Assembly (NCBI GenBank): GCA_026004535.1
Contig: BPJI01000002.1
Span: 688 to 64,687 of the forward strand
Source: Candidatus Parcubacteria bacterium
Lineage (GTDB): Bacteria > Patescibacteriota > Minisyncoccia > UBA6257 > HR35
DNA: 64,000 nt
Direction of reading: 5' to 3'
Below, in pieces: positions 12,850-48,239 of this stretch. Made by a program: the position numbers and the translations under genes. The notes below the pieces were generated by a model. It was not told the origin of the DNA. It saw only the letters and a program-made list of their open reading frames with translations, and ran no database searches. Position 1 is the stretch's first letter, and each line of letters starts with the position of its first letter.

Positions 12850-12904
12850 AGTTTTAAATTTTTTTGGTTAAACATAATTGTTCATAAAAGAACTGCTTTC
12901 ATAA

Positions 12905-13009
12905 TTAATTGCCTTGTTCTTTGGTTGTGATTTTGAAATAAATCACATTGCCAATTACTACAGCAACTACTGAAAGCAGAAGACCGATTAAAACAGATTT
13001 TGCGTCCAT
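12905..13009 (-). CDS. 34-aa hydrophobic mini-protein (MDAKSVLIGLLLSVVAVVIGNVIYFKITTKEQGN)
   Basis: I translated it by hand; it is below the ORF-track cutoff. It shares the GC-richer codon style of the adjacent gene and has a single TM helix. Confidence 0.3.
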   Translation of the reverse strand: MDAKSVLIGLLLSVVAVVIGNVIYFKITTKEQGN

Positions 13010-13158
13010 AATTAAAAAGTTTTTAAGGTTAATAATTGCAATACAAATTTAGGTAAATTAAATACACAATAAAATTTTTTGCTGCTTTTATTTTTGTAGT
13101 AATATCATTTAGTTTTTAACCTACCGCCATTTTAATTATTAACAATACAAATGTGCTG

Positions 13159-13196
<38 letters not shown>

Positions 13197-13267
13197 CTGA
13201 ATTAACGTTCTAACTAAATATCAACCTACGACTCTTATTAACTAAATAAATTAAATTATAATATAAA

Positions 13268-13291
13268 TATTATTATTATTATTATTATTAT
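13268..13291. repeat. (ATT)8 microsatellite
   Basis: atattattattattattattattatc. Confidence 0.9.
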
Positions 13292-13293
13292 CT

Positions 13294-13510
13294 TGTTAAT
13301 AACTCAAAAAAAATCAAAAATTTTTTTGCTAAACAACTGATAATAAATTATTTAAACGCTAAAAGTTATTAACAATTGCTGTTAATAACTTGTTAATAAG
13401 TGCCATTTTATTGTTAATAACCTGTTAATAATATGTTCATTTTATATTTGTTTCAAAATAAGTAACTTAAATAAAAAAATTATTTTTGTATTATTAAAAT
13501 TGTTAATAAA
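13294..13510. promoter_or_regulatory. iteron array of at least seven copies of the mini-palindrome GTTAaTAAC/GTTAtTAAC; candidate replication origin or multi-operator region
   Basis: Copies at 13294, 13365 (inverted), 13381, 13392, 13412, 13423 and 13501. Two pairs lie 11 bp apart. GTTATTAAC-n7-GTTAATAAC forms an inverted repeat. The array sits at the divergence point of the two strand blocks. Confidence 0.5.
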
Positions 13511-13529
13511 GTTTTCTAAATTTTAAAAT

Positions 13530-15867: not shown

Positions 15868-18800
15868 ATGCAAGAAGGGAAACTTTTAAAATATAGCAAA
15901 AACGTACTGCTTGATTTATCAGGTAAAGTAAAATTTGCAGAGGACACTCTTATACCTTTTAATCTATCTGCAGAATTGAGCGAGCAAGAAACAAATCTTT
16001 TGTTTGACATATTAAAAGAATTAGAGAAGCATGAAGATATAAACAAAAACAAAAGTTTATACTCTTTATTATTGCAATATCTTGAACTTAAATTAAAGCC
16101 AGACAAAATAGATGATATTGCCGAAAATTTAACAGGGGAGCAATTATACGCAATTGCACTTGGGATAAGAAACTTTGAATCAAATAATCATAGAAAAGGT
16201 GTTATCATAGGTGATACGATGGGATTTGGTAAAACAAGAATAGCAGCGGGCTATGTTCAGTATTTTATTAACAGGCGAAATGCACCATTTTTTGTATGCT
16301 CAAAAGAAGTGTTATTAAGTGAAATAATCAACGAATATATTGAGATTAATAAATCTAAATTTTATGATGCAAATGGTAAATTTGATATTAAGAAAGCAAG
16401 GAAATTCAAATTGCTGCTTTTTAACGAAAGAAAAAATATAGATGTTTTATATAAAAAGGGTAAAGAATATGTATCTGAAACAATTTATAGTTCAGATATA
16501 AATGATTTGAAGAATTTTGTTGAAGATGTTTTAAATGATGAGTTGTTGAGAAAATTTATTTTGTTGTTTAACCTGTTTAACTTTTCCGGGAATAAAAATT
16601 TAAGTAAAGAAATTAAAAATTATAATAAAAATTTGGCAAAATATTACACTGATAAAAATAAAGTTAGAGATTCAAAAAAAGAAGAAGGGCATAAATATTA
16701 CTATTTTAAAATGTTGTTTTCTGTTGGTTATATTTTGCAAGATGATATTAATTTTGTTAAAAATAAAAGATTATTTTATGTTAACAATAAAGAAGAATTG
16801 GTTGATGTATTAGATTATTTGTCAGATATAATTGAAGATTTTGAAAATAAATACAATGAAGCGAAAAAAAGATTTTTTGAGATACTTGTCAATAATGGAT
16901 TTATTGGCATAGGGACAACATATTCTCAATTGAGAACAGATTTTAGTGCAAATGATTTATACATAAATGTTGATTTGTCAAATTTCTATAAAAAAGACAA
17001 TTTTAAAGTCAAATTTAAAAATAAAGACAATAAAACGTTAAAAAGCATATTGTTTAACTTAACAAGTATATTTACTAATGTAATTTATGACGAATCGCAC
17101 AATATCGCAGGTGCAGAAACTATTGGTAAAACTACTACAAACTTTTTGTATCATAATTTCCATCCATATCTGAATTTAATTGCTTTTGAAAGTTTACTTT
17201 ACTCTTTAGATATAAAAAAATATGAGTTAACAAAACCTATATTGCAAGAAAAATTAAAAAACGACGAAAAAAATAGGTTTTCAACTTTAATTGAAGCATT
17301 AAATACCACAAAGTTTATATATGTTTCAATTAGTAAAACATTTACTAATCTGCTTCCTGAAAATGACAATCAAAATGATGATAACAAAAAAGAATTTTTA
17401 TGGTTTTTAAATGATGCTTTGAAAAGTGATTATATATCTTTATCTAATGATTTTATATCGAATAAGTTTAGTGCGTTTATGTCAGCAACTTTTGTTAAAA
17501 ATAATGGTATTATAATGCCTATTTTGTCTTTGTTTACAGATATAGGCACATTCCCAAACAAGATGATGTATTTTATGAGTTTTGATACGAAGATGTTTAA
17601 TAGCGAAAATGCAATATATTTTAAGCAATATCTTCCTAAATATTTAACAAAAAGAGGTTATTATATCAATAGGCAATTTGAATTGGTCACACCGCAATAT
17701 GAACCTATTAATTACATAATAAATAAAAATCAAAAAGAAAATGTAAATGATATTTATAAAAGGTTTATCAATCATTTTAAATTGCTTAAATCCAAAAAAT
17801 ACATAATGGAGAATATTTATTCTTATTTTTTATTAAAAAACGTAATTGATGTTTATAATTTTAAAAATTCAACAGAAGGATATTTTATTGATATTTTTAG
17901 AGAGAATCTTGTTAATGTCAATAGTATTTTAACCTCTGTAAACACAAGCGATTATGGCAATTTCAAAAAATTATTCATAAAAACCATTATTGATATATCC
18001 AATTTTTGCGAGGATATAAGCATTATTGAAAAAGCGTTTGGAAAAAAAATAGATGATAGTATTGTGAATAATGATGTTTTATATGATATGTTAAACAATG
18101 ATAATGAATTTGATTATAAATTAAGATGCACATTTATTATTATTCAATTTGGTGCTATAAAATATGGGTTAAATAATTCAGAGATAAAAATAATTACTTT
18201 AATAGACGATTCGATTTATCAAAACACTTCAGGTTTTAATATTTGGAAGCGAATTGATGAATTAATAGGTGTAAAGGAAGAAGATAACTTTTTCACGAGT
18301 AATGGTTTTCAAATTTTCAAAAAATATAAAGAAGCCAAGGATTTTATATTAGAAACAAAAGGAAACGATATTAATAATGACAATAATGATTCTATATCAT
18401 ACAAAATTAATTTTGAATATACAATAGATGAAATTTTTCAACCTTATACAGAAAAAAGATATGAAAATATTCTAAAATTTTACGAAGACAATAACACGTA
18501 TTTTAATTTATATGCATATGCCAATACAGACCATTTACTTGCTGTAAGACGATTAATTGCCTCAAATATTATTTCAATGTTTACAAAATTTAATTTTGGA
18601 AGGTTTAATAATAGTTTGGTGAAAAATTTCATTACTGCAATAAAAACTGTTGATATAACTCACAAATCTATTGAAATATTAGAAGGAAACAAAAATGAAA
18701 AATTAGATTGGATTCCTAAAAACAACGATGGATATAAGTTAATTGTATCATATGACCATACATTTGATAACTATTCAAAGGTTATATTAAACTCTTATGA

Positions 18801-21800
18801 AGGAAAGAAAGTTAAAAACGATGTAAGATATTTATTTGACGCAATAGAAAAAGATAATAATGTTTTTAAGAATATAGCATATCAAATAAATTTAAACTTT
18901 GTGGTTGACGATTACGAAAAACTATTAAATAAATATAAAGATATAATTTTAGAAAAATATATTGAGTATTCAAAAGATAAACAATTACCAAATGTCGATA
19001 GAGCATTTCAAATAATTGACAAAACATATTCTTCATTATTTACAACCGAAAATGAATTTTCAGGGTTTCCCAATGATAAATTATTTTGTTTAAAAGGGCA
19101 ATACTCTATTTATAAAAACTTGCAATACTTATATCAAGAATATTTAATCAATAAAGATATTGATTATAATATCCCATTTCAGCCCTATGATTATATAAAC
19201 AATACATTAAAAAACTATTTCAGGCAAAAAGGAATTAAATTTAATATGCTTGATGGTACGGGGAGGAGATATAAATTTGAACAAATACAGGGAGACAGCG
19301 AAGGGTATGGATATATTATTAAGACAGGTGAAATTTTGGCAGATAGTGATGAAAGTGAAGACGATATTGACGATATTGATGAAAACGAATCTATATTAAC
19401 AACAAAAGATATTGAAAGTGATGAAGAAATTGAAAGTTCAGAAACAGAAAGTGAAGATGAAAATGTTTATGTTGCTGTTTCAAAAGACGAGAATTACATA
19501 ATTAATTTAAGAGAAAAAATTCATTTGTTTAATAATGATAATCAATACAATTTAATAATAATAAACAGGCGTGCTTCTGAAAGCGTATCCTTACATGCAT
19601 CAGAAAAGTTTAAAGACAGAAGACCGAGAGTAATGATTATTGCAGAAGCAGAATCTAACAGTATCAATGAGATACAAAAACGTGGCCGTATAAATAGAAG
19701 AGGGCAAGTCGCAAAACCTTATTATTACTATCCTTACACAACCATACCTTACGAGAAAAGAATAATTATGATGTTAAAGAAAAAATTGATTCATTTGGAA
19801 GGCGTTACAAAAGGAAATAGAAACCTTTCCGATTTTAGTGAGGAAGAATTAAGAAAATTGCAAGATTTAGAAAATGAAGATGCAAATAAAATATTAGTAG
19901 ATATATTGCAGAAAAAATTAAGCGATTCCAGTTTGCCACTATTTGATTTGCATCTTTCAGATATGCGTGATTTGTTTGCATTGATTCAAGATAATGAAAC
20001 GGGCAGAGATGAAAGACGCTTTAATAATAGGATTGCGAGTGGAAAAGGATTGATAACTAAATTTATGCAAAATTATTATGTGTTTGATTTTGAAACGCAA
20101 GAAACAATACTAAACTCACTTATTGAATCCTATTTTAATATAATAAAAGATGTTGTAGAAGAAAAACCAATAAAAGCAAATATAGAAAGTAGGGATGTAT
20201 TTTATTATTCTAATTACAACAGATATTACGATTACAATAATGAAAATTTAAATAATACATTAATTGAAATACCGGAAATAAAATATTCTTTAACTTATAG
20301 AGAAAAAAATAATAAAATCAATTATGCAAACATTTATATTGACGCAATTAAATATTTGTCTAATGTAGATGAAGATAAAAAAATTATTAATCAATACATT
20401 GCGTTTTTAAAATATGTAACAAAAGAAAATGAAAGTGTGGTGCAAGATGAAGTATTGGCAAATGTTTTGGATGTAGATAGTTTATATGAAGATTTATATT
20501 ACTATCATGAAAAGTTAATGCAGGGGGTTAATATAAATATAAAATATGCGTTTATATTATTAAAAGCATTCAACATATTTGCTTCTTCTTTAAACAAGAA
20601 AACGTACATTAATTTATTGCGTGGCTTCTATTACAAATTATACAAGACACATATTTTAGGTTTATATGAGAAAGTAATTGAAATGTTTTCACAGTTCAAC
20701 CAAAGGCAAAATTTAATAAGCCAGATTGATTATTTTTCTAACTTGCAACTATTCAAGCAAAATGTCGAATTGTTGTTAAATATACCGGAAATAGATAAAT
20801 ATCAAGATGGCGATGAGTATTTTGAGGAACAAATTTCAAAAATTGAAGGTAAATATCACTTAATTAAAGATGAAAATGGTGAAGAATTTAAATTATATGT
20901 TCTTGAAAGTAATGAAGGAGAGTCAAATGTGCCTGTCATAATGCAATTAGATAAGAAAATTGTAGATTTAATTATATATTTATCGGATGTTAACAGGGCA
21001 TATCTATATTACAAAAAGATTGTCGCACATATTTACGAGAGCATGAATAGGGAAGGAAGTGAAATAAGCAAAAATATATCTGATAAATTGAAAAAGGATA
21101 TATTGGATATTATAGTGAATAATAAACATGATTATTACAATAACAATATTGACATACATTTAAGAAAAGTAAAAAATGAAATTTATCACAATGCTCTTTG
21201 CAATGTGCTTGTTAAAAAAATGTATTTACAAGAAGCAAATAAAGTTGAAACGAAAATTTTTAAAGATGGTATATCATTGATTCAAAAAATAAATACAAAC
21301 TTGTATAAAAAATTGTATAAAGCATGGGAAAAAGTTTTCAATAAATTAGATAATGAAAATAATAATATAAATGATGTAATCAGAAAAATGTATTTTGGAA
21401 AAGATATAACTCAAGACGAATATTTAAAATTAGATAAAAAAGAAGTTGCAAAATTTGAGAAATATCAAAGTGAGGTAAAAAAATCATTGATATCGTACAC
21501 AAAATATTTGTTTGATAAAGCGGTTAAACATTATGAAGATAATTTGTTGAAAGATAAAGATGAAAATACAAATGTAAATTTTCACTTATATCAAAAGATA
21601 GATTTAAAAGAGTTGGTTGATTATGTAATTGACTATATGTCAAATAGCGAGTATGTTTTAACTAACGAAATAGTTAATGTTGTAGAGAAAGAAGCGTATA
21701 TTGAGGAGAACTATGATAAATTTGTCAAATTGCCAAAAAATCTTAAAGATTTATACATTAAAGAAATAAGATATGGCAATATAGAAATGCTGATTGATAA

Positions 21801-22440
21801 TATAATGATGAGAAATCCTATTTACACAAGTGTGCATGAGTTTAATAATTTTAGTTTAATGTATCCGGCATTTATGTTTTTAACCACAAACTATAATGAT
21901 ATTAAATTTACTTCAATATTTAATATTATATATAATTTAAAAGGTACAACTGTGTCAGGCAATCCTTCCAATGCAGTAATGTTTATTACAAATATGAAAG
22001 AGCGTCAATTTAAATTAGTGATTGCATTTTTAGATAAAGTTGTTAGTGATAATGAAGTAACAATACTGAAGCAAGATTTTTCTAAAATTTTCTTTGATAT
22101 GCAAAATAAATTAGACATAGATAGTGTTAAAGAATATGATGTTTATTCTAAAGACAAAGAAATAGAAAAAGCTTTGGATGTGTATGAAAAAATTGAAAGC
22201 GAAAACAAAGTGCAGGTTGTAGCAAACAATATATTTTATACATTGAATGACAAGTTTATTGATGCAAACCTAAAAAGCAAAACATTTTTGATTGGTGAAG
22301 GTATATTCAGTCAACCTTTAACAGGAATAATAATTAATGCAACAAGTGAGGGCGGAATAGATGAAGAGACACCTGTGTTAAACATTAATATACCAATTAA
22401 AATTGATAACATTACGGATATAATTAATAATATAAATTAA
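15868..22440 (+). CDS. giant (2190 aa) SNF2/DExH-like superfamily-2 helicase with an insertion of about 850 aa between the two RecA lobes and a C-terminal extension of about 900 aa
   Basis: Motifs at helicase-appropriate positions: motif I GDTMGFGKT (nt 16210-16236), motif Ia FFVCSKEVLLSEI, motif II VIYDESHNIAG (nt about 17089), an SAT-like MSATF, motif V-like NRRASESVSLHA and motif VI QKRGRINRRGQ (nt about 19675). An acidic D/E/S low-complexity linker sits just before the C-terminal lobe. Confidence 0.75.
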   Translation: MQEGKLLKYSKNVLLDLSGKVKFAEDTLIPFNLSAELSEQETNLLFDILKELEKHEDINKNKSLYSLLLQYLELKLKPDKIDDIAENLTGEQLYAIALGIRNFESNNHRKGVIIGDTMGFGKTRIAAGYVQYFINRRNAPFFVCSKEVLLSEIINEYIEINKSKFYDANGKFDIKKARKFKLLLFNERKNIDVLYKKGKEYVSETIYSSDINDLKNFVEDVLNDELLRKFILLFNLFNFSGNKNLSKEIKNYNKNLAKYYTDKNKVRDSKKEEGHKYYYFKMLFSVGYILQDDINFVKNKRLFYVNNKEELVDVLDYLSDIIEDFENKYNEAKKRFFEILVNNGFIGIGTTYSQLRTDFSANDLYINVDLSNFYKKDNFKVKFKNKDNKTLKSILFNLTSIFTNVIYDESHNIAGAETIGKTTTNFLYHNFHPYLNLIAFESLLYSLDIKKYELTKPILQEKLKNDEKNRFSTLIEALNTTKFIYVSISKTFTNLLPENDNQNDDNKKEFLWFLNDALKSDYISLSNDFISNKFSAFMSATFVKNNGIIMPILSLFTDIGTFPNKMMYFMSFDTKMFNSENAIYFKQYLPKYLTKRGYYINRQFELVTPQYEPINYIINKNQKENVNDIYKRFINHFKLLKSKKYIMENIYSYFLLKNVIDVYNFKNSTEGYFIDIFRENLVNVNSILTSVNTSDYGNFKKLFIKTIIDISNFCEDISIIEKAFGKKIDDSIVNNDVLYDMLNNDNEFDYKLRCTFIIIQFGAIKYGLNNSEIKIITLIDDSIYQNTSGFNIWKRIDELIGVKEEDNFFTSNGFQIFKKYKEAKDFILETKGNDINNDNNDSISYKINFEYTIDEIFQPYTEKRYENILKFYEDNNTYFNLYAYANTDHLLAVRRLIASNIISMFTKFNFGRFNNSLVKNFITAIKTVDITHKSIEILEGNKNEKLDWIPKNNDGYKLIVSYDHTFDNYSKVILNSYEGKKVKNDVRYLFDAIEKDNNVFKNIAYQINLNFVVDDYEKLLNKYKDIILEKYIEYSKDKQLPNVDRAFQIIDKTYSSLFTTENEFSGFPNDKLFCLKGQYSIYKNLQYLYQEYLINKDIDYNIPFQPYDYINNTLKNYFRQKGIKFNMLDGTGRRYKFEQIQGDSEGYGYIIKTGEILADSDESEDDIDDIDENESILTTKDIESDEEIESSETESEDENVYVAVSKDENYIINLREKIHLFNNDNQYNLIIINRRASESVSLHASEKFKDRRPRVMIIAEAESNSINEIQKRGRINRRGQVAKPYYYYPYTTIPYEKRIIMMLKKKLIHLEGVTKGNRNLSDFSEEELRKLQDLENEDANKILVDILQKKLSDSSLPLFDLHLSDMRDLFALIQDNETGRDERRFNNRIASGKGLITKFMQNYYVFDFETQETILNSLIESYFNIIKDVVEEKPIKANIESRDVFYYSNYNRYYDYNNENLNNTLIEIPEIKYSLTYREKNNKINYANIYIDAIKYLSNVDEDKKIINQYIAFLKYVTKENESVVQDEVLANVLDVDSLYEDLYYYHEKLMQGVNINIKYAFILLKAFNIFASSLNKKTYINLLRGFYYKLYKTHILGLYEKVIEMFSQFNQRQNLISQIDYFSNLQLFKQNVELLLNIPEIDKYQDGDEYFEEQISKIEGKYHLIKDENGEEFKLYVLESNEGESNVPVIMQLDKKIVDLIIYLSDVNRAYLYYKKIVAHIYESMNREGSEISKNISDKLKKDILDIIVNNKHDYYNNNIDIHLRKVKNEIYHNALCNVLVKKMYLQEANKVETKIFKDGISLIQKINTNLYKKLYKAWEKVFNKLDNENNNINDVIRKMYFGKDITQDEYLKLDKKEVAKFEKYQSEVKKSLISYTKYLFDKAVKHYEDNLLKDKDENTNVNFHLYQKIDLKELVDYVIDYMSNSEYVLTNEIVNVVEKEAYIEENYDKFVKLPKNLKDLYIKEIRYGNIEMLIDNIMMRNPIYTSVHEFNNFSLMYPAFMFLTTNYNDIKFTSIFNIIYNLKGTTVSGNPSNAVMFITNMKERQFKLVIAFLDKVVSDNEVTILKQDFSKIFFDMQNKLDIDSVKEYDVYSKDKEIEKALDVYEKIESENKVQVVANNIFYTLNDKFIDANLKSKTFLIGEGIFSQPLTGIIINATSEGGIDEETPVLNINIPIKIDNITDIINNIN

Positions 22441-41253: not shown

Positions 41254-41556
41254 TTGATATTTGCTGTGTCTATTTTTAAAATTTATTATGTGAGTGATTT
41301 AAAAAGCGTAAATAAAGAAATATTGCAAATAAAAGACAGTTTGTATAAATACACACTTGAAAGAGAAATTGAAAGCAAAAATTTAAGAGACACAATTAAG
41401 ATCATAGAAAAACAAATATACTTTAACAACAGGATATATGAAAAACAAATTATACAGATTGACACGATTACATCTATTGATACTATTTTTAACAATATAT
41501 ATTCATACATATTGTCAAAGCGATACATTGACGTCTATAAAGATAGGAATAAATGA
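41254..41556 (+). CDS. uncertain ORF with a non-ATG (TTG) start; an in-frame GTG exists at 41287. Its 3' end overlaps the next gene by 119 nt in another frame
   Basis: The translation is coiled-coil-like, but both the start and the gene's reality are uncertain. Confidence 0.3.
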   Translation: MIFAVSIFKIYYVSDLKSVNKEILQIKDSLYKYTLEREIESKNLRDTIKIIEKQIYFNNRIYEKQIIQIDTITSIDTIFNNIYSYILSKRYIDVYKDRNK

Positions 41557-41929
41557 CACCTTTCCAAATAATTATGGTCGGGATAGTTTAATTTTTCTGA
41601 AAAGCAGAGTTTTTTTTATCTATAACCAATATTTTTCTTGTTTTAATTTACAGGATTCAAGAGAATTGTTAAAGTACTTAAAAACATTTGATTATTTAAG
41701 GGAAGAAAATAAATTATTGAAAGAAAAAATAAGCAAATTGGAAATGTTATATTCTAATGAGAAAGCTTATAGTGATAAAATAAAAATTGATTTGGAAAAT
41801 ACATTGAAAACAAATAGCCAATTGCACGATGAAAACTTAAAATTGAAATATAAAAACAGGTATCTAAAATTAACGATAGGGATTTTGGCCGTAACAGATA
41901 TTGTTTTACTGTATTTACTTGTTAAATAA
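41438..41929 (+). CDS. spanin-like envelope protein: signal peptide with a Cys near the cleavage region, coiled coil and a C-terminal TM helix
   Basis: N-terminal segment LHLLILFLTIYIHTYCQSD, a coiled-coil middle (LREENKLLKEKISKLEMLYS...), and C-terminal TM segment LTIGILAVTDIVLLYLLVK. Confidence 0.4.
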   Translation: MKNKLYRLTRLHLLILFLTIYIHTYCQSDTLTSIKIGINDTFPNNYGRDSLIFLKSRVFFIYNQYFSCFNLQDSRELLKYLKTFDYLREENKLLKEKISKLEMLYSNEKAYSDKIKIDLENTLKTNSQLHDENLKLKYKNRYLKLTIGILAVTDIVLLYLLVK

Positions 41930-41933
41930 ACTT

Positions 41934-42194
41934 TTATTTTTTGCTTTTATATTCGTCATAAAGTTTTTGCAAATTCAGCCAAAACCTGCCACTAATTTTT
42001 GTTGATTTTTCTAATTTCTTTGCAATATCTTTATCAATATCAATTTTTTGGCACATAAATTTTTTTAATGTATCCAAATCTATATCTGATATTTGAGAGA
42101 AATATTCCAGAGAGTAATTTAATTCGTTTAATTTTTCTTTTAATGTTTCAGATGGATGAAAAACTATATTTGCTTTGTATTCATTGTTTTTCAT
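41934..42194 (-). CDS. HigA/VapI-family XRE helix-turn-helix regulator with no toxin partner (86 aa)
   Basis: HPSETLKEKLNELNYSLEYFSQISDIDLDTLKKFMCQKIDIDKDIAKKLEKSTKISGRFWLNLQKLYD matches the HigA-like HTH consensus (HPGEiL...L..lg.s...LA..l......l......i....A.rL......FWLnLQ..YDL). Confidence 0.7.
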   Translation of the reverse strand: MKNNEYKANIVFHPSETLKEKLNELNYSLEYFSQISDIDLDTLKKFMCQKIDIDKDIAKKLEKSTKISGRFWLNLQKLYDEYKSKK

Positions 42195-42218
42195 TGTTTT
42201 AGATTTATTTTTATTGCA

Positions 42219-42242
42219 AGTAACTATTATTCGAGCGGTTAC
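42219..42242. promoter_or_regulatory. inverted repeat GTAAC-n13-GTTAC in the divergent region upstream of the HigA-like gene; operator candidate
   Basis: The sequence gtaactattattcgagcggttac lies 25 nt upstream of the regulator's start codon. Confidence 0.3.
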
Positions 42243-42445
42243 AATAATCTTTTGATTGTATAATATCTATCATTATTTTGGCAACCAACTTATAAAGCAA
42301 ATACTTTCAATAAATAAACAAAATTACTACTTTTGACTCTAATTGGACAATAATGATTGCATTTTTTTGCAAATTAAAAAATTATATTTAAATTTGCTCA
42401 CATAAACTTAAAAATATTGACTTATGGAAACTACAAAAAAAACCA

Positions 42446-42967
42446 TTGAAAATGGAGAAAATCTTTTTAAGAATTAAGAAAAACAAAAACATCCAAGACA
42501 ATTATTTCATATCATTGAATTTTACAGATGACAATGGGATGGAATATAGCAAAATACTGAATTATTTTAGTAAAAATGGTAAGGATTATTTTGCCATAAG
42601 AGACAATATGGGAGTATTTTCCGTTTCATTGGATGATATGACAGAGGATAGGTGTGTATTGGTGTATAAAAACGATGAAACCAACACAAAAATCAAATAT
42701 GAATTGGCAAATGCAGGAGGTTATTATATGTATTTTGAAAAACTACCAGAACATGTTGTAAAAAAAATAGACAAAATCTACCAAAAACTTGAAACACAAC
42801 TAATGGAAAAAGAGCAAAAAGAACAAAAAGAGATGAACAATGGAAGTATTAGTAATAATGATGAATATGTAAAATATGAAGTTTACAATGATGAAGAGGC
42901 AGAAGAAATGTTTCCATCACGCAAAGATGAAGACGAAGACGATGTTATTTTTGGTGGCAGAAATTAA
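42446..42967 (+). CDS. hypothetical protein with a very acidic C-terminus ending DEDEDDVIFGGRN (173 aa)
   Basis: An ORF whose acidic tail is faintly reminiscent of SSB DDDIPF tails. Confidence 0.45.
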   Translation: MKMEKIFLRIKKNKNIQDNYFISLNFTDDNGMEYSKILNYFSKNGKDYFAIRDNMGVFSVSLDDMTEDRCVLVYKNDETNTKIKYELANAGGYYMYFEKLPEHVVKKIDKIYQKLETQLMEKEQKEQKEMNNGSISNNDEYVKYEVYNDEEAEEMFPSRKDEDEDDVIFGGRN

Positions 42968-42987
42968 ATGTGAAATAAAATAATGTT

Positions 42988-43488
42988 ATGATAGTAGCAG
43001 GAATAGATATAGGTAAAAAAGGATATATTGTTTTAAATCAAAATTATGATATTTTGGAATATTTTAAAATGCCATTGCTTGCCAATGAGTTAGATATAGA
43101 AGAGTTGAATCGGCTGTTAAACGGCATAAATGAGCAATACGGAAATGTGTTGTTTGCTTTTGAGAAATTTAACAATCTTTTCGGATATTCAAAGCAAGCG
43201 GCAATATCAATAAACTCTCAATTCAATATCTTTAAAACAATTATGATTCTAAATAAATTTAAATACATAACCATCCATCCCAAAGATTGGCAAAAAGATA
43301 TATTTAAAAACCTTGATTTGATTAAAAACGATAAGACACAAACAAAAAAGAAAGAGACAAAAGTTCTATCTTTGCGTGCCTGCCATCATTTATATCCTAA
43401 ATATGCAGGCATTGTAAAGAATAATGATAACTTCGCCGATGCTATACTTATCAGCCATTATGTTTTACGGAAACATATATCTGTCTAA
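42988..43488 (+). CDS. RuvC-like Holliday-junction resolvase candidate (166 aa)
   Basis: The N-terminus MIVAGIDIGKKGYIVL resembles the RuvC/YqgF first-acidic-residue motif. The size is appropriate. Confidence 0.45.
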   Translation: MIVAGIDIGKKGYIVLNQNYDILEYFKMPLLANELDIEELNRLLNGINEQYGNVLFAFEKFNNLFGYSKQAAISINSQFNIFKTIMILNKFKYITIHPKDWQKDIFKNLDLIKNDKTQTKKKETKVLSLRACHHLYPKYAGIVKNNDNFADAILISHYVLRKHISV

Positions 43489-43489
43489 A

Positions 43490-44056
43490 TTACTTCATGT
43501 ATAAATAACATGTTTCCAAATAACCATTCCTTCCGACATAATTGCATATTCGGTCAAGGACTTTGTTTTCTTTAATTCCGCTTAATATACTTGTCCCTGT
43601 GTATTCTTGAAGTATTTTGTCGTCTCCGTAACTATCACGATAGTTAATTTTTAAAAATATTTTTAACGTATCAATGAAATTCCTGTTTGATGATTCATCT
43701 TTGTAGTTATATATGTCTATCAGATTGTTTAGGTATAAAGTAAGATAAAAATAAGACCACGCATAAATATTATTATCTTTAAGAGAGTTGTTTAAAAAAT
43801 TTATTTGCTTTTGCGTTAGTTTATTTTGATTATTTTTAAAAATAGTTTTATAGTTTCTTATGTGCATTAGAGAATTTCCTTTCTCTGCCAGTAAAGAAAA
43901 TGGCAATATGAGCGGCACATTGTTTAATTCGCAACATTCCTTCAACACGTTTAATTTTACATTGTCCATAAATGTTGCCAGATAGGTAATGTCAATATTG
44001 ATTCTTGAACCGAATTTTGGATCGGTCGTGTAGGGTATTTTTATATATAATCTCAT
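43490..44056 (-). CDS. hypothetical protein (188 aa)
   Basis: An ORF overlapped by 4 nt by the upstream gene. Confidence 0.5.
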   Translation of the reverse strand: MRLYIKIPYTTDPKFGSRINIDITYLATFMDNVKLNVLKECCELNNVPLILPFSLLAEKGNSLMHIRNYKTIFKNNQNKLTQKQINFLNNSLKDNNIYAWSYFYLTLYLNNLIDIYNYKDESSNRNFIDTLKIFLKINYRDSYGDDKILQEYTGTSILSGIKENKVLDRICNYVGRNGYLETCYLYMK

Positions 44057-44457
44057 TTTTCATTTTCAATAAGAAGATCTCTTATCAATTCTTTGCCATC
44101 ATCATTCAAATTTAACAGTTTTATTTTGTATTTTATTTTAAGAATGGCAATATTGTGCGAATTTTTATTTAATATATAATCATTGTATAGAGAATAAAAA
44201 TATAAAATAACTTCCTGTTCTATGTCTTTTTTAAATATAACAGATGTCGCAATCTTGCTTTTTATTCTTTTAAATAAATAATCATTAAGCAAAACGTGAT
44301 ATGTGTCCGAAGTAATATATTCCGTATCAAAGTAACGCTTGGCAGTATAAAATATCATATCTTCATAGTCCACGAAAAAAAATAAAGCAAGATTAAATTT
44401 AATTTTATGGGCTAATTTGACAAGTTTATCCGATATTATGTATTTAATTTTTTTCAT
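44053..44457 (-). CDS. hypothetical protein (134 aa)
   Basis: An ORF. Confidence 0.5.
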   Translation of the reverse strand: MKKIKYIISDKLVKLAHKIKFNLALFFFVDYEDMIFYTAKRYFDTEYITSDTYHVLLNDYLFKRIKSKIATSVIFKKDIEQEVILYFYSLYNDYILNKNSHNIAILKIKYKIKLLNLNDDGKELIRDLLIENEK

Positions 44458-45005
44458 TGTTTTTTATTCATTATTTTGATATATTTTTGCGATATTTTAT
44501 CAAAATCATATAGTTTGCTTTCTGCATAAAGGTTGTTTGCCATTTCAAGCAATCTTTTTTTATTCTCTTCAATTGACTCTATTCCATCGCTTGCCAAATT
44601 GTAATTAAATACTTGGTTTCTACTCTTGTAGTAATTGTCCAAAAAGTCGTATGCCTGATACACTTTTTTAAATTTGTATTTAGTAAATCTCTTTTTAATC
44701 AATTCACGTACATAACTTATATCTTCCATTGTTAATTCGTGCGTTTTACTTATTACGCTTAATTCGCCCTCTTCAAATTCGCCATATATCTTCTTAACGT
44801 CCATCAAAAATTTAAGTTTCAATTCGCTTTTTAAATTTTTGTATAGTTCTTGCTTTATTAAACAAATAATTTCTTTAATTTTATTGCTTGATATTGTTGA
44901 ATTTAAGGCATTTGCATAAGCAGAAATTTGATTGAAAATTTTTTTGTCGGTGTTTTCATCGTAATTAAAATAATCAATAATTCCAAAATTTTCTATCTTT
45001 TCCAT
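44454..45005 (-). CDS. hypothetical protein (183 aa)
   Basis: An ORF. Confidence 0.5.
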   Translation of the reverse strand: MEKIENFGIIDYFNYDENTDKKIFNQISAYANALNSTISSNKIKEIICLIKQELYKNLKSELKLKFLMDVKKIYGEFEEGELSVISKTHELTMEDISYVRELIKKRFTKYKFKKVYQAYDFLDNYYKSRNQVFNYNLASDGIESIEENKKRLLEMANNLYAESKLYDFDKISQKYIKIMNKKQ

Positions 45006-45026
45006 ATTATTAAATTTTTATTCTTT

Positions 45027-45758
45027 TTACATTCTACGAAATAAATATATTATCAAAGTTAAAAAAACTGCTGATGTAATAACAATTAAAAATACAAATA
45101 GTATCTTTTCCTTGTCAATATTTGGGTCATCGTCAGTATTATTATTGACCCCAGAAGGTTTTATATCTTCATAAGGGACAAAAATGTGGCTATTTATTCT
45201 GTTTAGTATCCCTTGAAGAAATTTTTTGTTTTTATCTGATTCGTAAGCAGTCCATCTACTCTTTAGCTTATTAAATAATTGCTCTTGTTTTTCTTTATTC
45301 ATTTTATTTATCTCTTCGCTCAATATAGGCATATATTCATGTGGTATAGAAGGATAGTCGGTAATTTTTTTCCCTTTTATTTCCGCAACAGCATTTTTTA
45401 AATCTTGTCGGGCTTGCGATTCACCGGATTTAACCATCATATCAAAAATAAGTTGCTTTATAGACCTATTTTTGATATTATCTAATTTGTTGTTTTTGTG
45501 ATTGTATATGTAATCATAATATAACTTTTTTGCATCATCTTTAGTCAGATTTTGAATAAATTGCTTAATCTTTGTGGGATTGGTATATTTAAGTTTATCC
45601 CTAACAAAATTGCATGTGATACCATATTTTGTGAGAAACTTGTAATTTACGCCGTCAATAGTGCAAAAATTACCTGAATCTAAATTAGAGTCGTTTATTT
45701 CGCCTTCATACTTAAAAACGTGCTCTATTATTTTTTCATAATCTTTTGAATAAGGCAT
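45027..45758 (-). CDS. GH108-like N-acetylmuramidase-domain protein with a C-terminal TM anchor
   Basis: The N-terminus VFKYEGEINDSNLDSGNFCTIDGVNYKFLTKYGIT resembles the GH108 EGG...D.GG.T.yGIt signature. The C-terminal TM segment is ILFVFLIVITSAVFLTLIIYLF. Confidence 0.4.
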   Translation of the reverse strand: MPYSKDYEKIIEHVFKYEGEINDSNLDSGNFCTIDGVNYKFLTKYGITCNFVRDKLKYTNPTKIKQFIQNLTKDDAKKLYYDYIYNHKNNKLDNIKNRSIKQLIFDMMVKSGESQARQDLKNAVAEIKGKKITDYPSIPHEYMPILSEEINKMNKEKQEQLFNKLKSRWTAYESDKNKKFLQGILNRINSHIFVPYEDIKPSGVNNNTDDDPNIDKEKILFVFLIVITSAVFLTLIIYLFRRM

Positions 45759-47491: not shown

Positions 47492-47594
47492 AACATAAAA
47501 ATTTGCAATAAAAATAACAAATTAGTTAAATTTAAAGTGTTTATATCAAAAAGATAATTATAGACATATACTTATAAATTATAATGACTTGAAT

Positions 47595-47825
47595 TCACAT
47601 ACTCTTAAGAATCCACCAGTAATCCCAATCGAAATTGTTCACTCTATGTTGCCAAATATCTTCTAAAGCATTACGGAATCTATCATCAGTAGATGGCATT
47701 TTTTCCAAATTATAAATTCTATTTAAAAAGTCTGTTTCATCTAACCGTCCATGCCACCTAAATATCTTTTATTTTATCTCATCAAAAAGGTCTTTTCTTG
47801 TTACAGCACTTATTTGATTATCCAT
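47595..47825 (-). pseudogene. 76-codon ORF interrupted by a single in-frame TAA at 47769-47771 (MDNQISAVTRKDLFDEIK*KIFRWHGRLDETDFLNRIYNLEKMPSTDDRFRNALEDIWQHRVNNFDWDYWWILKSM)
   Basis: I translated it by hand. The sequence is protein-like on both sides of the stop in the same frame. Confidence 0.35.
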
Positions 47826-48212
47826 AATTCTTTTATTTTTTCACCTAACGGTGTCAGGCGGTACTATTATTAGCATTTTTATGTTTTATTGACAAGCCTG
47901 TCAATATAATTAAGCAATATTTCGCCTTGTTTTGTCAAATAAAACAGATTGATAATCAATAAGGTGTAATTTCATTAAACAAAATTGTTTAAATAACGAA
48001 GTATTATTTCCCCTCATTTTGTTTAAAATAAAGTGTTGACTATCAGGTTTTTGCAATTTATTTAAACAATATTTGTACTAAATTCAACTAATAAATGCAA
48101 CTTTTTGATGGTTCAAATATAAATAAAATTTTAATCTTGGAAAAATAAATAGATGTATGAGTAAATATTTATAGAAAACTCTACTCAAACAAGCAGTTTT
48201 TAGAAAAATTTA

Positions 48213-48220
48213 TAGCTTTG
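48213..48220 (+). promoter_or_regulatory. Bacteroidetes-type -7 element TAGCTTTG upstream of the gamma-class MTase
   Basis: It matches TAnnTTTG and lies 19 nt before the ATG at 48240. Confidence 0.4.
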
Positions 48221-48239
48221 TGTAAGTTAAAAGATTAGT

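Follow-up and report, generated by a model that had tools for sequence, protein, structure and literature searches.

What does a gene that resembles the antitoxin half of a toxin-antitoxin module do when it stands alone in a phage-like genome? The question is posed by an 86-aa open reading frame (MKNNEYKANIVFHPSETLKEKLNELNYSLEYFSQISDIDLDTLKKFMCQKIDIDKDIAKKLEKSTKISGRFWLNLQKLYDEYKSKK) on the minus strand of a 64-kb window, the whole stretch of DNA analysed here, which belongs to a 69,155-bp contig. The ORF is intact, matches NCBI protein KatS3mg096_623 exactly and has a start codon backed by homologues that begin MKKNEY. Its GC content is in line with that of its surroundings, which are laid out as follows.

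41438–41929, plus strand: convergent 163-aa protein (ORF) with a hydrophobic N-terminus, coiled-coil middle and hydrophobic C-terminus
41934–42194, minus strand: solitary HigA-family XRE helix-turn-helix gene, 86 aa, as assigned from ORF, profiles and predicted fold
42195–42451: divergent intergenic region, 22% GC by sequence, joint third in size among the intergenic gaps of the window
42255–42284, minus strand: sigma-70-like promoter candidate TTGCCA-18-TACAAT for the HigA-like gene (consensus scan, 10/12 matches)
42369–42397: near-palindrome GCAAATTAAAAAAT/ATATTTAAATTTGC with 14-nt arms, 86% complementary (repeat search)
42452–42967, plus strand: divergent 171-aa ORFan KatS3mg096_624, a possible regulatory target, whose sole database match is itself
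42988–43488, plus strand: RuvC-like Holliday junction resolvase, second gene of a short plus-strand pair (phrog_1770, E=3e-15)

A preliminary description of this DNA had called the gene the lone minus-strand gene between two plus-strand blocks. The left side is a 28-kb plus-strand block (13530–41929); on the right, the plus-strand block comprises two genes only (42446–43488) and gives way to a minus-strand block at 43490–45758. The HigA-like gene and the convergent 163-aa gene have stop codons 4 nt apart. Upstream, the divergent gap measures 251 bp (42195–42445), or 257 bp with the neighbour's start placed at the ATG at 42452, as in the deposited annotation.

Both neighbours are ORFans. The 171-aa protein has no Pfam or PHROG family, and its single-sequence AF2 model, at pLDDT 47, is unusable. 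The convergent 163-aa protein has no family match in Pfam, PHROG or PADLOC and is not a RelE-type toxin. Its hydrophobic N-terminus ends in a Cys (…IHTYC), and an M23 peptidase gene precedes its own gene by about 1.6 kb. Possibly it is a lysis protein of the spanin type or a membrane protein.

Judged by its gene content, the window appears to be a novel AT-rich tailed-phage genome. The phage context suggested earlier is supported by PHROG and Pfam matches of tailed-phage type: RecT, a RecE/YqaJ-type exonuclease, several DNA methyltransferases, endolysins of the GH108, M15 and M23 types, a minor head protein and a tape measure protein. Further matches are to a CCA-adding enzyme and the RuvC-like resolvase, and the majority of window proteins, large ones included, have no family. 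One of the large ones, a 2190-aa protein (15868–22440, plus strand), carries Strawberry-notch-type helicase domains (AAA_34, ResIII, Helicase_C_4) with the remainder lacking a family, and recalls the very large helicases that phages and conjugative elements encode. No integrase or recombinase Pfam family was found among the 81 window ORFs, and the window has no tRNAs.

Searches for a related genome came back empty. We searched 50,697 phage records (INPHARED) by megablast and tblastn, IMG/VR with the HigA-like protein, the resolvase of RuvC type and two window proteins of 708 and 482 aa, and also JGI metagenome contigs and GTDB representatives; none yielded a relative. The phage genome itself, 69 kb long, with hardly any structural genes that can be recognised and without a relative in the collections searched, is arguably more novel than its HigA-like gene. 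GenBank files the contig under a 'Candidatus Parcubacteria bacterium' MAG (KatS3mg096), and because the contig is phage-like throughout, this host assignment comes from binning only. A Shine-Dalgarno-like core precedes only 2 of 81 genes, and window GC is 27.6%. Bacteroidota are one example of hosts in which Shine-Dalgarno usage is typically weak.

Family membership and predicted fold

Sequence profiles place the 86-aa protein among HigA-like antitoxins. The NCBIfam model TIGR02607 (HigA antidote) aligns to residues 12–80 with E=2e-8 and 33.9 bits, a score that falls short of its curated equivalog cut-off of 47.7 bits. PHROG 1381, 'plasmid antitoxin with HTH domain', which is filed in the category 'moron, auxiliary metabolic gene and host takeover', matches residues 11–85 (E=3.4e-10, 40.7 bits). 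Pfam HTH models do not detect the protein, and PADLOC defence models give no match for it. Searching PDB sequences with phmmer returned E. coli HigA 2ICP at the top (E=2.7e-5), followed by 3CEC, GraA, P. aeruginosa HigA and VapI.

The protein also belongs to a coherent subfamily. At E≤1e-3, an exhaustive HMMER search of 1.84 billion representatives recovered 486 relatives; those that match best over full length are 40–58% identical to the window protein. TIGR02607 matches 50 of 50 aligned relatives, and a subfamily profile built from the aligned relatives retrieves solved HigA structures with E-values of 1e-16 to 1e-13. The alignment reveals a shared N-terminal NEY.P extension together with the HigA motifs, and the window protein itself carries the signatures HPSE (residues 13–16) and FWLNLQ (71–76). 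Some of its best non-self matches (P0002, P0003, P0013 and P0018) bear two tandem HigA-like HTH domains in one polypeptide of 166–234 aa; these would be covalent 'dimers' of the HigA fold.

The predicted structure agrees with the profiles. An AlphaFold (AF2) model built on the subfamily alignment reaches pLDDT 88.3 and has five helices, at residues 14–25, 29–36, 40–47, 55–65 and 69–85. In a Foldseek search of the PDB the top 38 structures are all HigA, GraA, VapI or YbaQ (TM 0.75–0.82, rmsd 1.0–1.5 Å), making the modelled protein nearest in structure to HigA, not to Cro/CI or C-proteins. It shares the five-helix XRE HTH fold of type II HigBA antitoxins at TM ~0.8 and rmsd 1.0–1.3 Å, as seen with E. 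coli HigA (2ICP/2ICT) and Proteus vulgaris Rts1 HigA (6CHV/4MCT); P. aeruginosa HigA (7CSV/6JPI), P. putida GraA (6F8H) and Coxiella VapI (3TRB) share the fold as well. The HP(G/S)E...FWLNLQ signature and the length class are likewise common to HigA antitoxins and the window protein. Clear homology and the predicted fold together identify the 86-aa protein as a HigA/VapI-family XRE helix-turn-helix protein. The same identity had been proposed at the outset from the letters of the sequence, and profile, sequence and structure tests now support it, with a HigA-like match that spans residues 12–80.

Residues for DNA contact are partly retained. In PaHigA, S26, R32 and T40 are DNA-contacting residues conserved among HigA homologues (PMC6987408). 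Two of these three contacts are kept in the window protein by profile alignment, S28 for S26 and T42 for T40, and Q34 stands in place of R32. Two further residues essential for PaHigA DNA binding, R49 and D43, are not conserved, being I51 and K45 here. K50 adjoins I51, and Lys is common at position 50 among the closest aligned subfamily members. The window protein keeps intact the FWLNLQ helix that serves as dimer interface in PaHigA, and its net charge is about +3 by sequence count. Unlike HigBA antitoxins, the window protein lacks an equivalent of the PaHigA R49 arginine and falls below the TIGR02607 cut-off, and its gene has neither an upstream HigB/GraT toxin nor an operon partner.

The search for a toxin partner

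The HigA-like gene is solitary within the window and is not half of a toxin-antitoxin module there. A type II HigBA module is recognised by an adjacent upstream toxin of the HigB/RelE fold, and this locus has none. The preliminary description had reported no HigB/RelE-like ORF in the gap or in overlapping frames, and its conclusion of orphan status holds for the 64-kb window of the 69,155-bp contig. The toxin remnants it proposed to look for did not turn up either: ORFs in the 251-bp gap are only 20–37 aa long and none has a Pfam match. A Pfam scan of the 81 non-overlapping window ORFs of at least 50 aa returned 15 families in total, with no RelE/ParE/HigB/Gp49 toxin and no other HTH protein among them. 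We also searched the whole window by tblastn with HigB-like toxins paired to relatives, namely the L002 HigB-like protein (PF05015, 28.9 bits, above that family's cut-off) and the 112-aa protein of L008, which is 42% identical to the L002 toxin. The best E-value was 1.3, and no match close to the gene was meaningful. We considered that the gap might encode a structured RNA or RNA antitoxin and rejected this, as Rfam gave no match and neither strand showed a folding signal (z = -0.16 and +0.56).

Relatives of the gene occur both with and without a toxin. A HigB-like toxin lies directly upstream in three genomic contexts and is absent from seven, the closest relative (57%) being among the seven.

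L002 (P0004), 53% identity: HigB-like toxin immediately upstream
L008/L009 (P0154), 39%: HigB-like toxin immediately upstream, M78 peptidase downstream
L017 (P0073), 39%: HigB-like toxin immediately upstream
L001/L010, 57–58%, the closest: no HigB-like neighbour
L003, 46%, and L006, 44%: no HigB-like neighbour
L004/L005, 42%: no HigB-like neighbour; another HTH_3 gene precedes
L007, 40%, L014/L015, 40%, and L016, 39%: no HigB-like neighbour

The paired toxins of L002, L008/L009 and L017 are 110–122 aa long, of PF05015 type, and 1–24 nt away from the antitoxin gene or overlapping it. The window protein resembles these toxin-paired metagenomic members in subfamily, NEY.P extension and motifs, and differs in that the toxin is absent. 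Solitary relatives lie mostly in phage-like DNA (L001/L010, L003, L004/L005 and L006). A subfamily found both paired with HigB and alone in phage-like DNA fits antitoxin capture by phages. The neighbours of solitary copies, phage copies included, are mutually unrelated, so that the gene behaves like an independent one-gene cassette.

The contexts of relatives hold further arrangements of their own. In L008:957-2414 and L009:899-2356, an array of HigB-like toxin, HigA homologue and 256-aa M78 peptidase (ImmA/IrrE-type, HEAGH motif) points to a possible HigBA variant under protease control. Downstream of the closest HigA homologues, L001:290-1400 and L010:3397-3786 encode tandem repeats of about 25 aa (…GLEKGLDVS.YA.PE.DW…), and these repeat-protein genes give multiple staggered self-matches in blastn. 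The L010 homologue itself (L010:3159-3420, a Logan ERR14790953 contig) is 58% identical to the window protein and has an in-frame TAA at codon 63; beyond that stop the HigA sequence can still be read (HLKIPKSFWLNLQKMY), and the copy on the sister contig L001 is intact. The L010 homologue is thus an apparent pseudogene.

Sequenced phages carry lone HigA-like copies too, among them Vibrio phage ICP1 ORF97.2 ('HigA'), Microcystis phage MaMV-DC ORF34L and Rhodococcus phage E3 gp50. Like the window gene, each is a lone HigA-family gene with no annotated toxin neighbour and unrelated hypothetical genes around it. Their products share only 30–34% identity with the window protein (tblastn E=0.01 to 3), and the genes lie co-directionally in small-gene arrays, whereas the window gene stands singly in antisense orientation and has a 251-bp upstream region to itself. 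Orphan HigA-like phage genes are already on record, which makes the present finding less unusual: a lone HigA-like HTH in a phage is a known category, catalogued as PHROG 1381 and discussed as a possible 'anti-addiction' antitoxin.

The divergent gap and the distant iterons

The inverted repeat GTAAC-n13-GTTAC in the gap had been put forward as an operator candidate; the repeat is real, and its role as an operator is not demonstrated. It lies at 42220–42242, is the sole such site in the window, and is embedded in overlapping AT-rich repeats TTATTGCAA/TTACAATAA (42211–42247). Its position, downstream of the sigma-70-like site and ahead of the HigA-like start codon, is a plausible one for an operator. 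Such repeats nevertheless occur at chance frequency, with 34 perfect 5-nt inverted repeats at 0–30 nt spacing observed in the gap against 26.7 ± 7.6 in shuffles, and the site is not conserved upstream of the closest homologue, with which sharing is not significant. The arms are 18 bp apart from centre to centre, about 1.7 helical turns and not a whole number of them, a spacing that would suit a symmetric HTH dimer poorly. At the window gene we could identify no palindromic operator of the kind seen in HigA systems, such as TTAACGTTAA.

Presumably the gap carries the promoters of both the HigA-like gene and the 171-aa/RuvC-like pair. For the former, TTGCCA-18-TACAAT is a candidate only, because sigma-70-like sites are as frequent in the region as in shuffles (8 versus 8.2). 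On the other side, the near-palindrome at 42369–42397, a candidate feature, overlaps a promoter-like pattern, TTTG-n19-TAnnTTTG, which a pattern search found upstream of the 171-aa gene. We set aside a Bacteroidetes-type promoter there, as TTTG-n-TAnnTTTG is not clearly enriched at gene starts.

Other motifs in the gap fared no better. The motif TACTT(G/A)CAATAAAA, shared between the regions upstream of the window gene and the L001 homologue, was rejected because shuffles equalled its score in 11 of 300 trials (L001). TACTTRCAATAAAA, an upstream motif shared with the closest homologue, shows no convincing excess over shuffles; L010 gives no signal for the shared upstream motif, which there lies within a called 44-aa ORF. 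TTATTGNAA has 3 copies in 42211–42313 and 26 in the whole window, a suggestive clustering that we set aside because the motif was picked post hoc. Elsewhere, the largest intergenic gap of the window, also divergent, spans 748 bp at 47492–48239.

The iterons noted earlier near 13.3 kb do exist. Eight of the 11 exact window copies of TGTTAATAA fall within 13136–13509, on both strands, and no shuffle reaches 11. They sit in a 680-bp divergent gap (12850–13529) beside a 35-nt poly(T) run (13162–13196), and this region between two large gene blocks is likely an origin or major regulatory region. A link between the iterons and the HigA-like gene was rejected: the gap contains zero copies of TGTTAATAA, and the two regions have no common motif.

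Readings of function

We give about an even chance to the reading in which the protein is a dimeric DNA-binding transcriptional repressor, acting on its own promoter, on the divergent 171-aa/RuvC-like pair, or on both. The gene would form a single-gene transcription unit with its own promoter in the 251-bp divergent gap, given that it is the only minus-strand gene locally and has that upstream gap and a promoter-like site. As in solved HigA proteins, the product would dimerise through helices 4 and 5 (the FWLNLQ segment) and insert the HTH of helices 2 and 3 into the DNA major groove. It would then repress its own promoter, that of the divergent pair, or both, and binding at other phage or host sites may also occur.

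Familiar phage regulators offer partial parallels to such a repressor. Like phage Aca proteins and Cro/CI repressors, the product is a small phage HTH protein encoded beside a divergent promoter region, where autorepression is plausible. Aca layouts require an anti-defence gene upstream in the same operon. Unlike these, the window gene has no same-strand upstream gene and is monocistronic between convergent and divergent neighbours. It also differs from a CI/Cro switch, as there is no second HTH repressor and no integrase among the 81 window ORFs, and the 171-aa ORFan on its divergent side gave no HTH match.

A second reading, rather unlikely in our view, is that the protein serves anti-defence. 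Free HigA-type antitoxin would neutralise a host HigB/RelE-type toxin and so block abortive infection mediated by toxin-antitoxin systems, the 'anti-addiction' role proposed for orphan antitoxins in mobile elements (PMC7354431, PMC11541004). Among the close relatives, those at 53%, 39% and 39% identity are each encoded immediately after a HigB-like toxin, which argues that the clade binds such toxins; and because the relatives at 53% and 39% have genuine HigB partners, toxin binding may be retained in the window protein. Lone HigA-like copies recur in virulent phages, and the category of PHROG 1381 includes host takeover. Set against this, antitoxin-toxin pairs are usually highly specific, and our literature search found no experimental precedent for a HigA-family phage decoy. 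That the free antitoxin is an anti-defence weapon against a HigB/RelE-type abortive-infection toxin of a possibly uncultivated host is unlikely. The regulator and toxin-neutralising roles are not mutually exclusive.

The two other readings are less likely than either regulation or neutralisation of a host toxin. It is improbable that the gene is a decaying remnant of a captured higBA module, kept by chance and with little or no function. The in-frame stop of the L010 homologue does suggest dispensability in at least one lineage, and the window protein scores below the HigA equivalog cut-off. Yet the ORF is intact, the family motifs are preserved and the predicted fold is confident; the GC content of the gene matches its surroundings, a 251-bp upstream region with promoter-like sites precedes it, and tblastn found no toxin remnant at any E-value of note in the window. 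Very improbable is an unrecognised two-gene system in which the protein is antitoxin or regulator of a non-canonical neighbour, the 171-aa ORFan or the 163-aa membrane/coiled-coil protein: both lack a family, and the 171-aa protein shows weak similarity to the gene downstream of the L014 HigA homologue, but that similarity is marginal (24.6 bits, 28% over 100 aa, 22% gaps), the neighbours of solitary homologues are mutually unrelated, and a divergent/convergent layout is atypical of type II toxin-antitoxin operons. We accordingly rejected the 171-aa protein as a partner, it being an ORFan with an AF2 pLDDT of 47 and a marginal L014 similarity.

On present evidence the HigA-like gene is an ordinary feature of this genome, and its main value is as a data point. 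Should neutralisation of a toxin prove true, the few known phage anti-toxin-antitoxin factors would be joined by one of HigA type. If free antitoxin indeed acts as a decoy for host toxins, the solitary HigA genes of ICP1, MaMV-DC, E3 and this phage would represent a widespread class of counter-defence against toxin-antitoxin systems.
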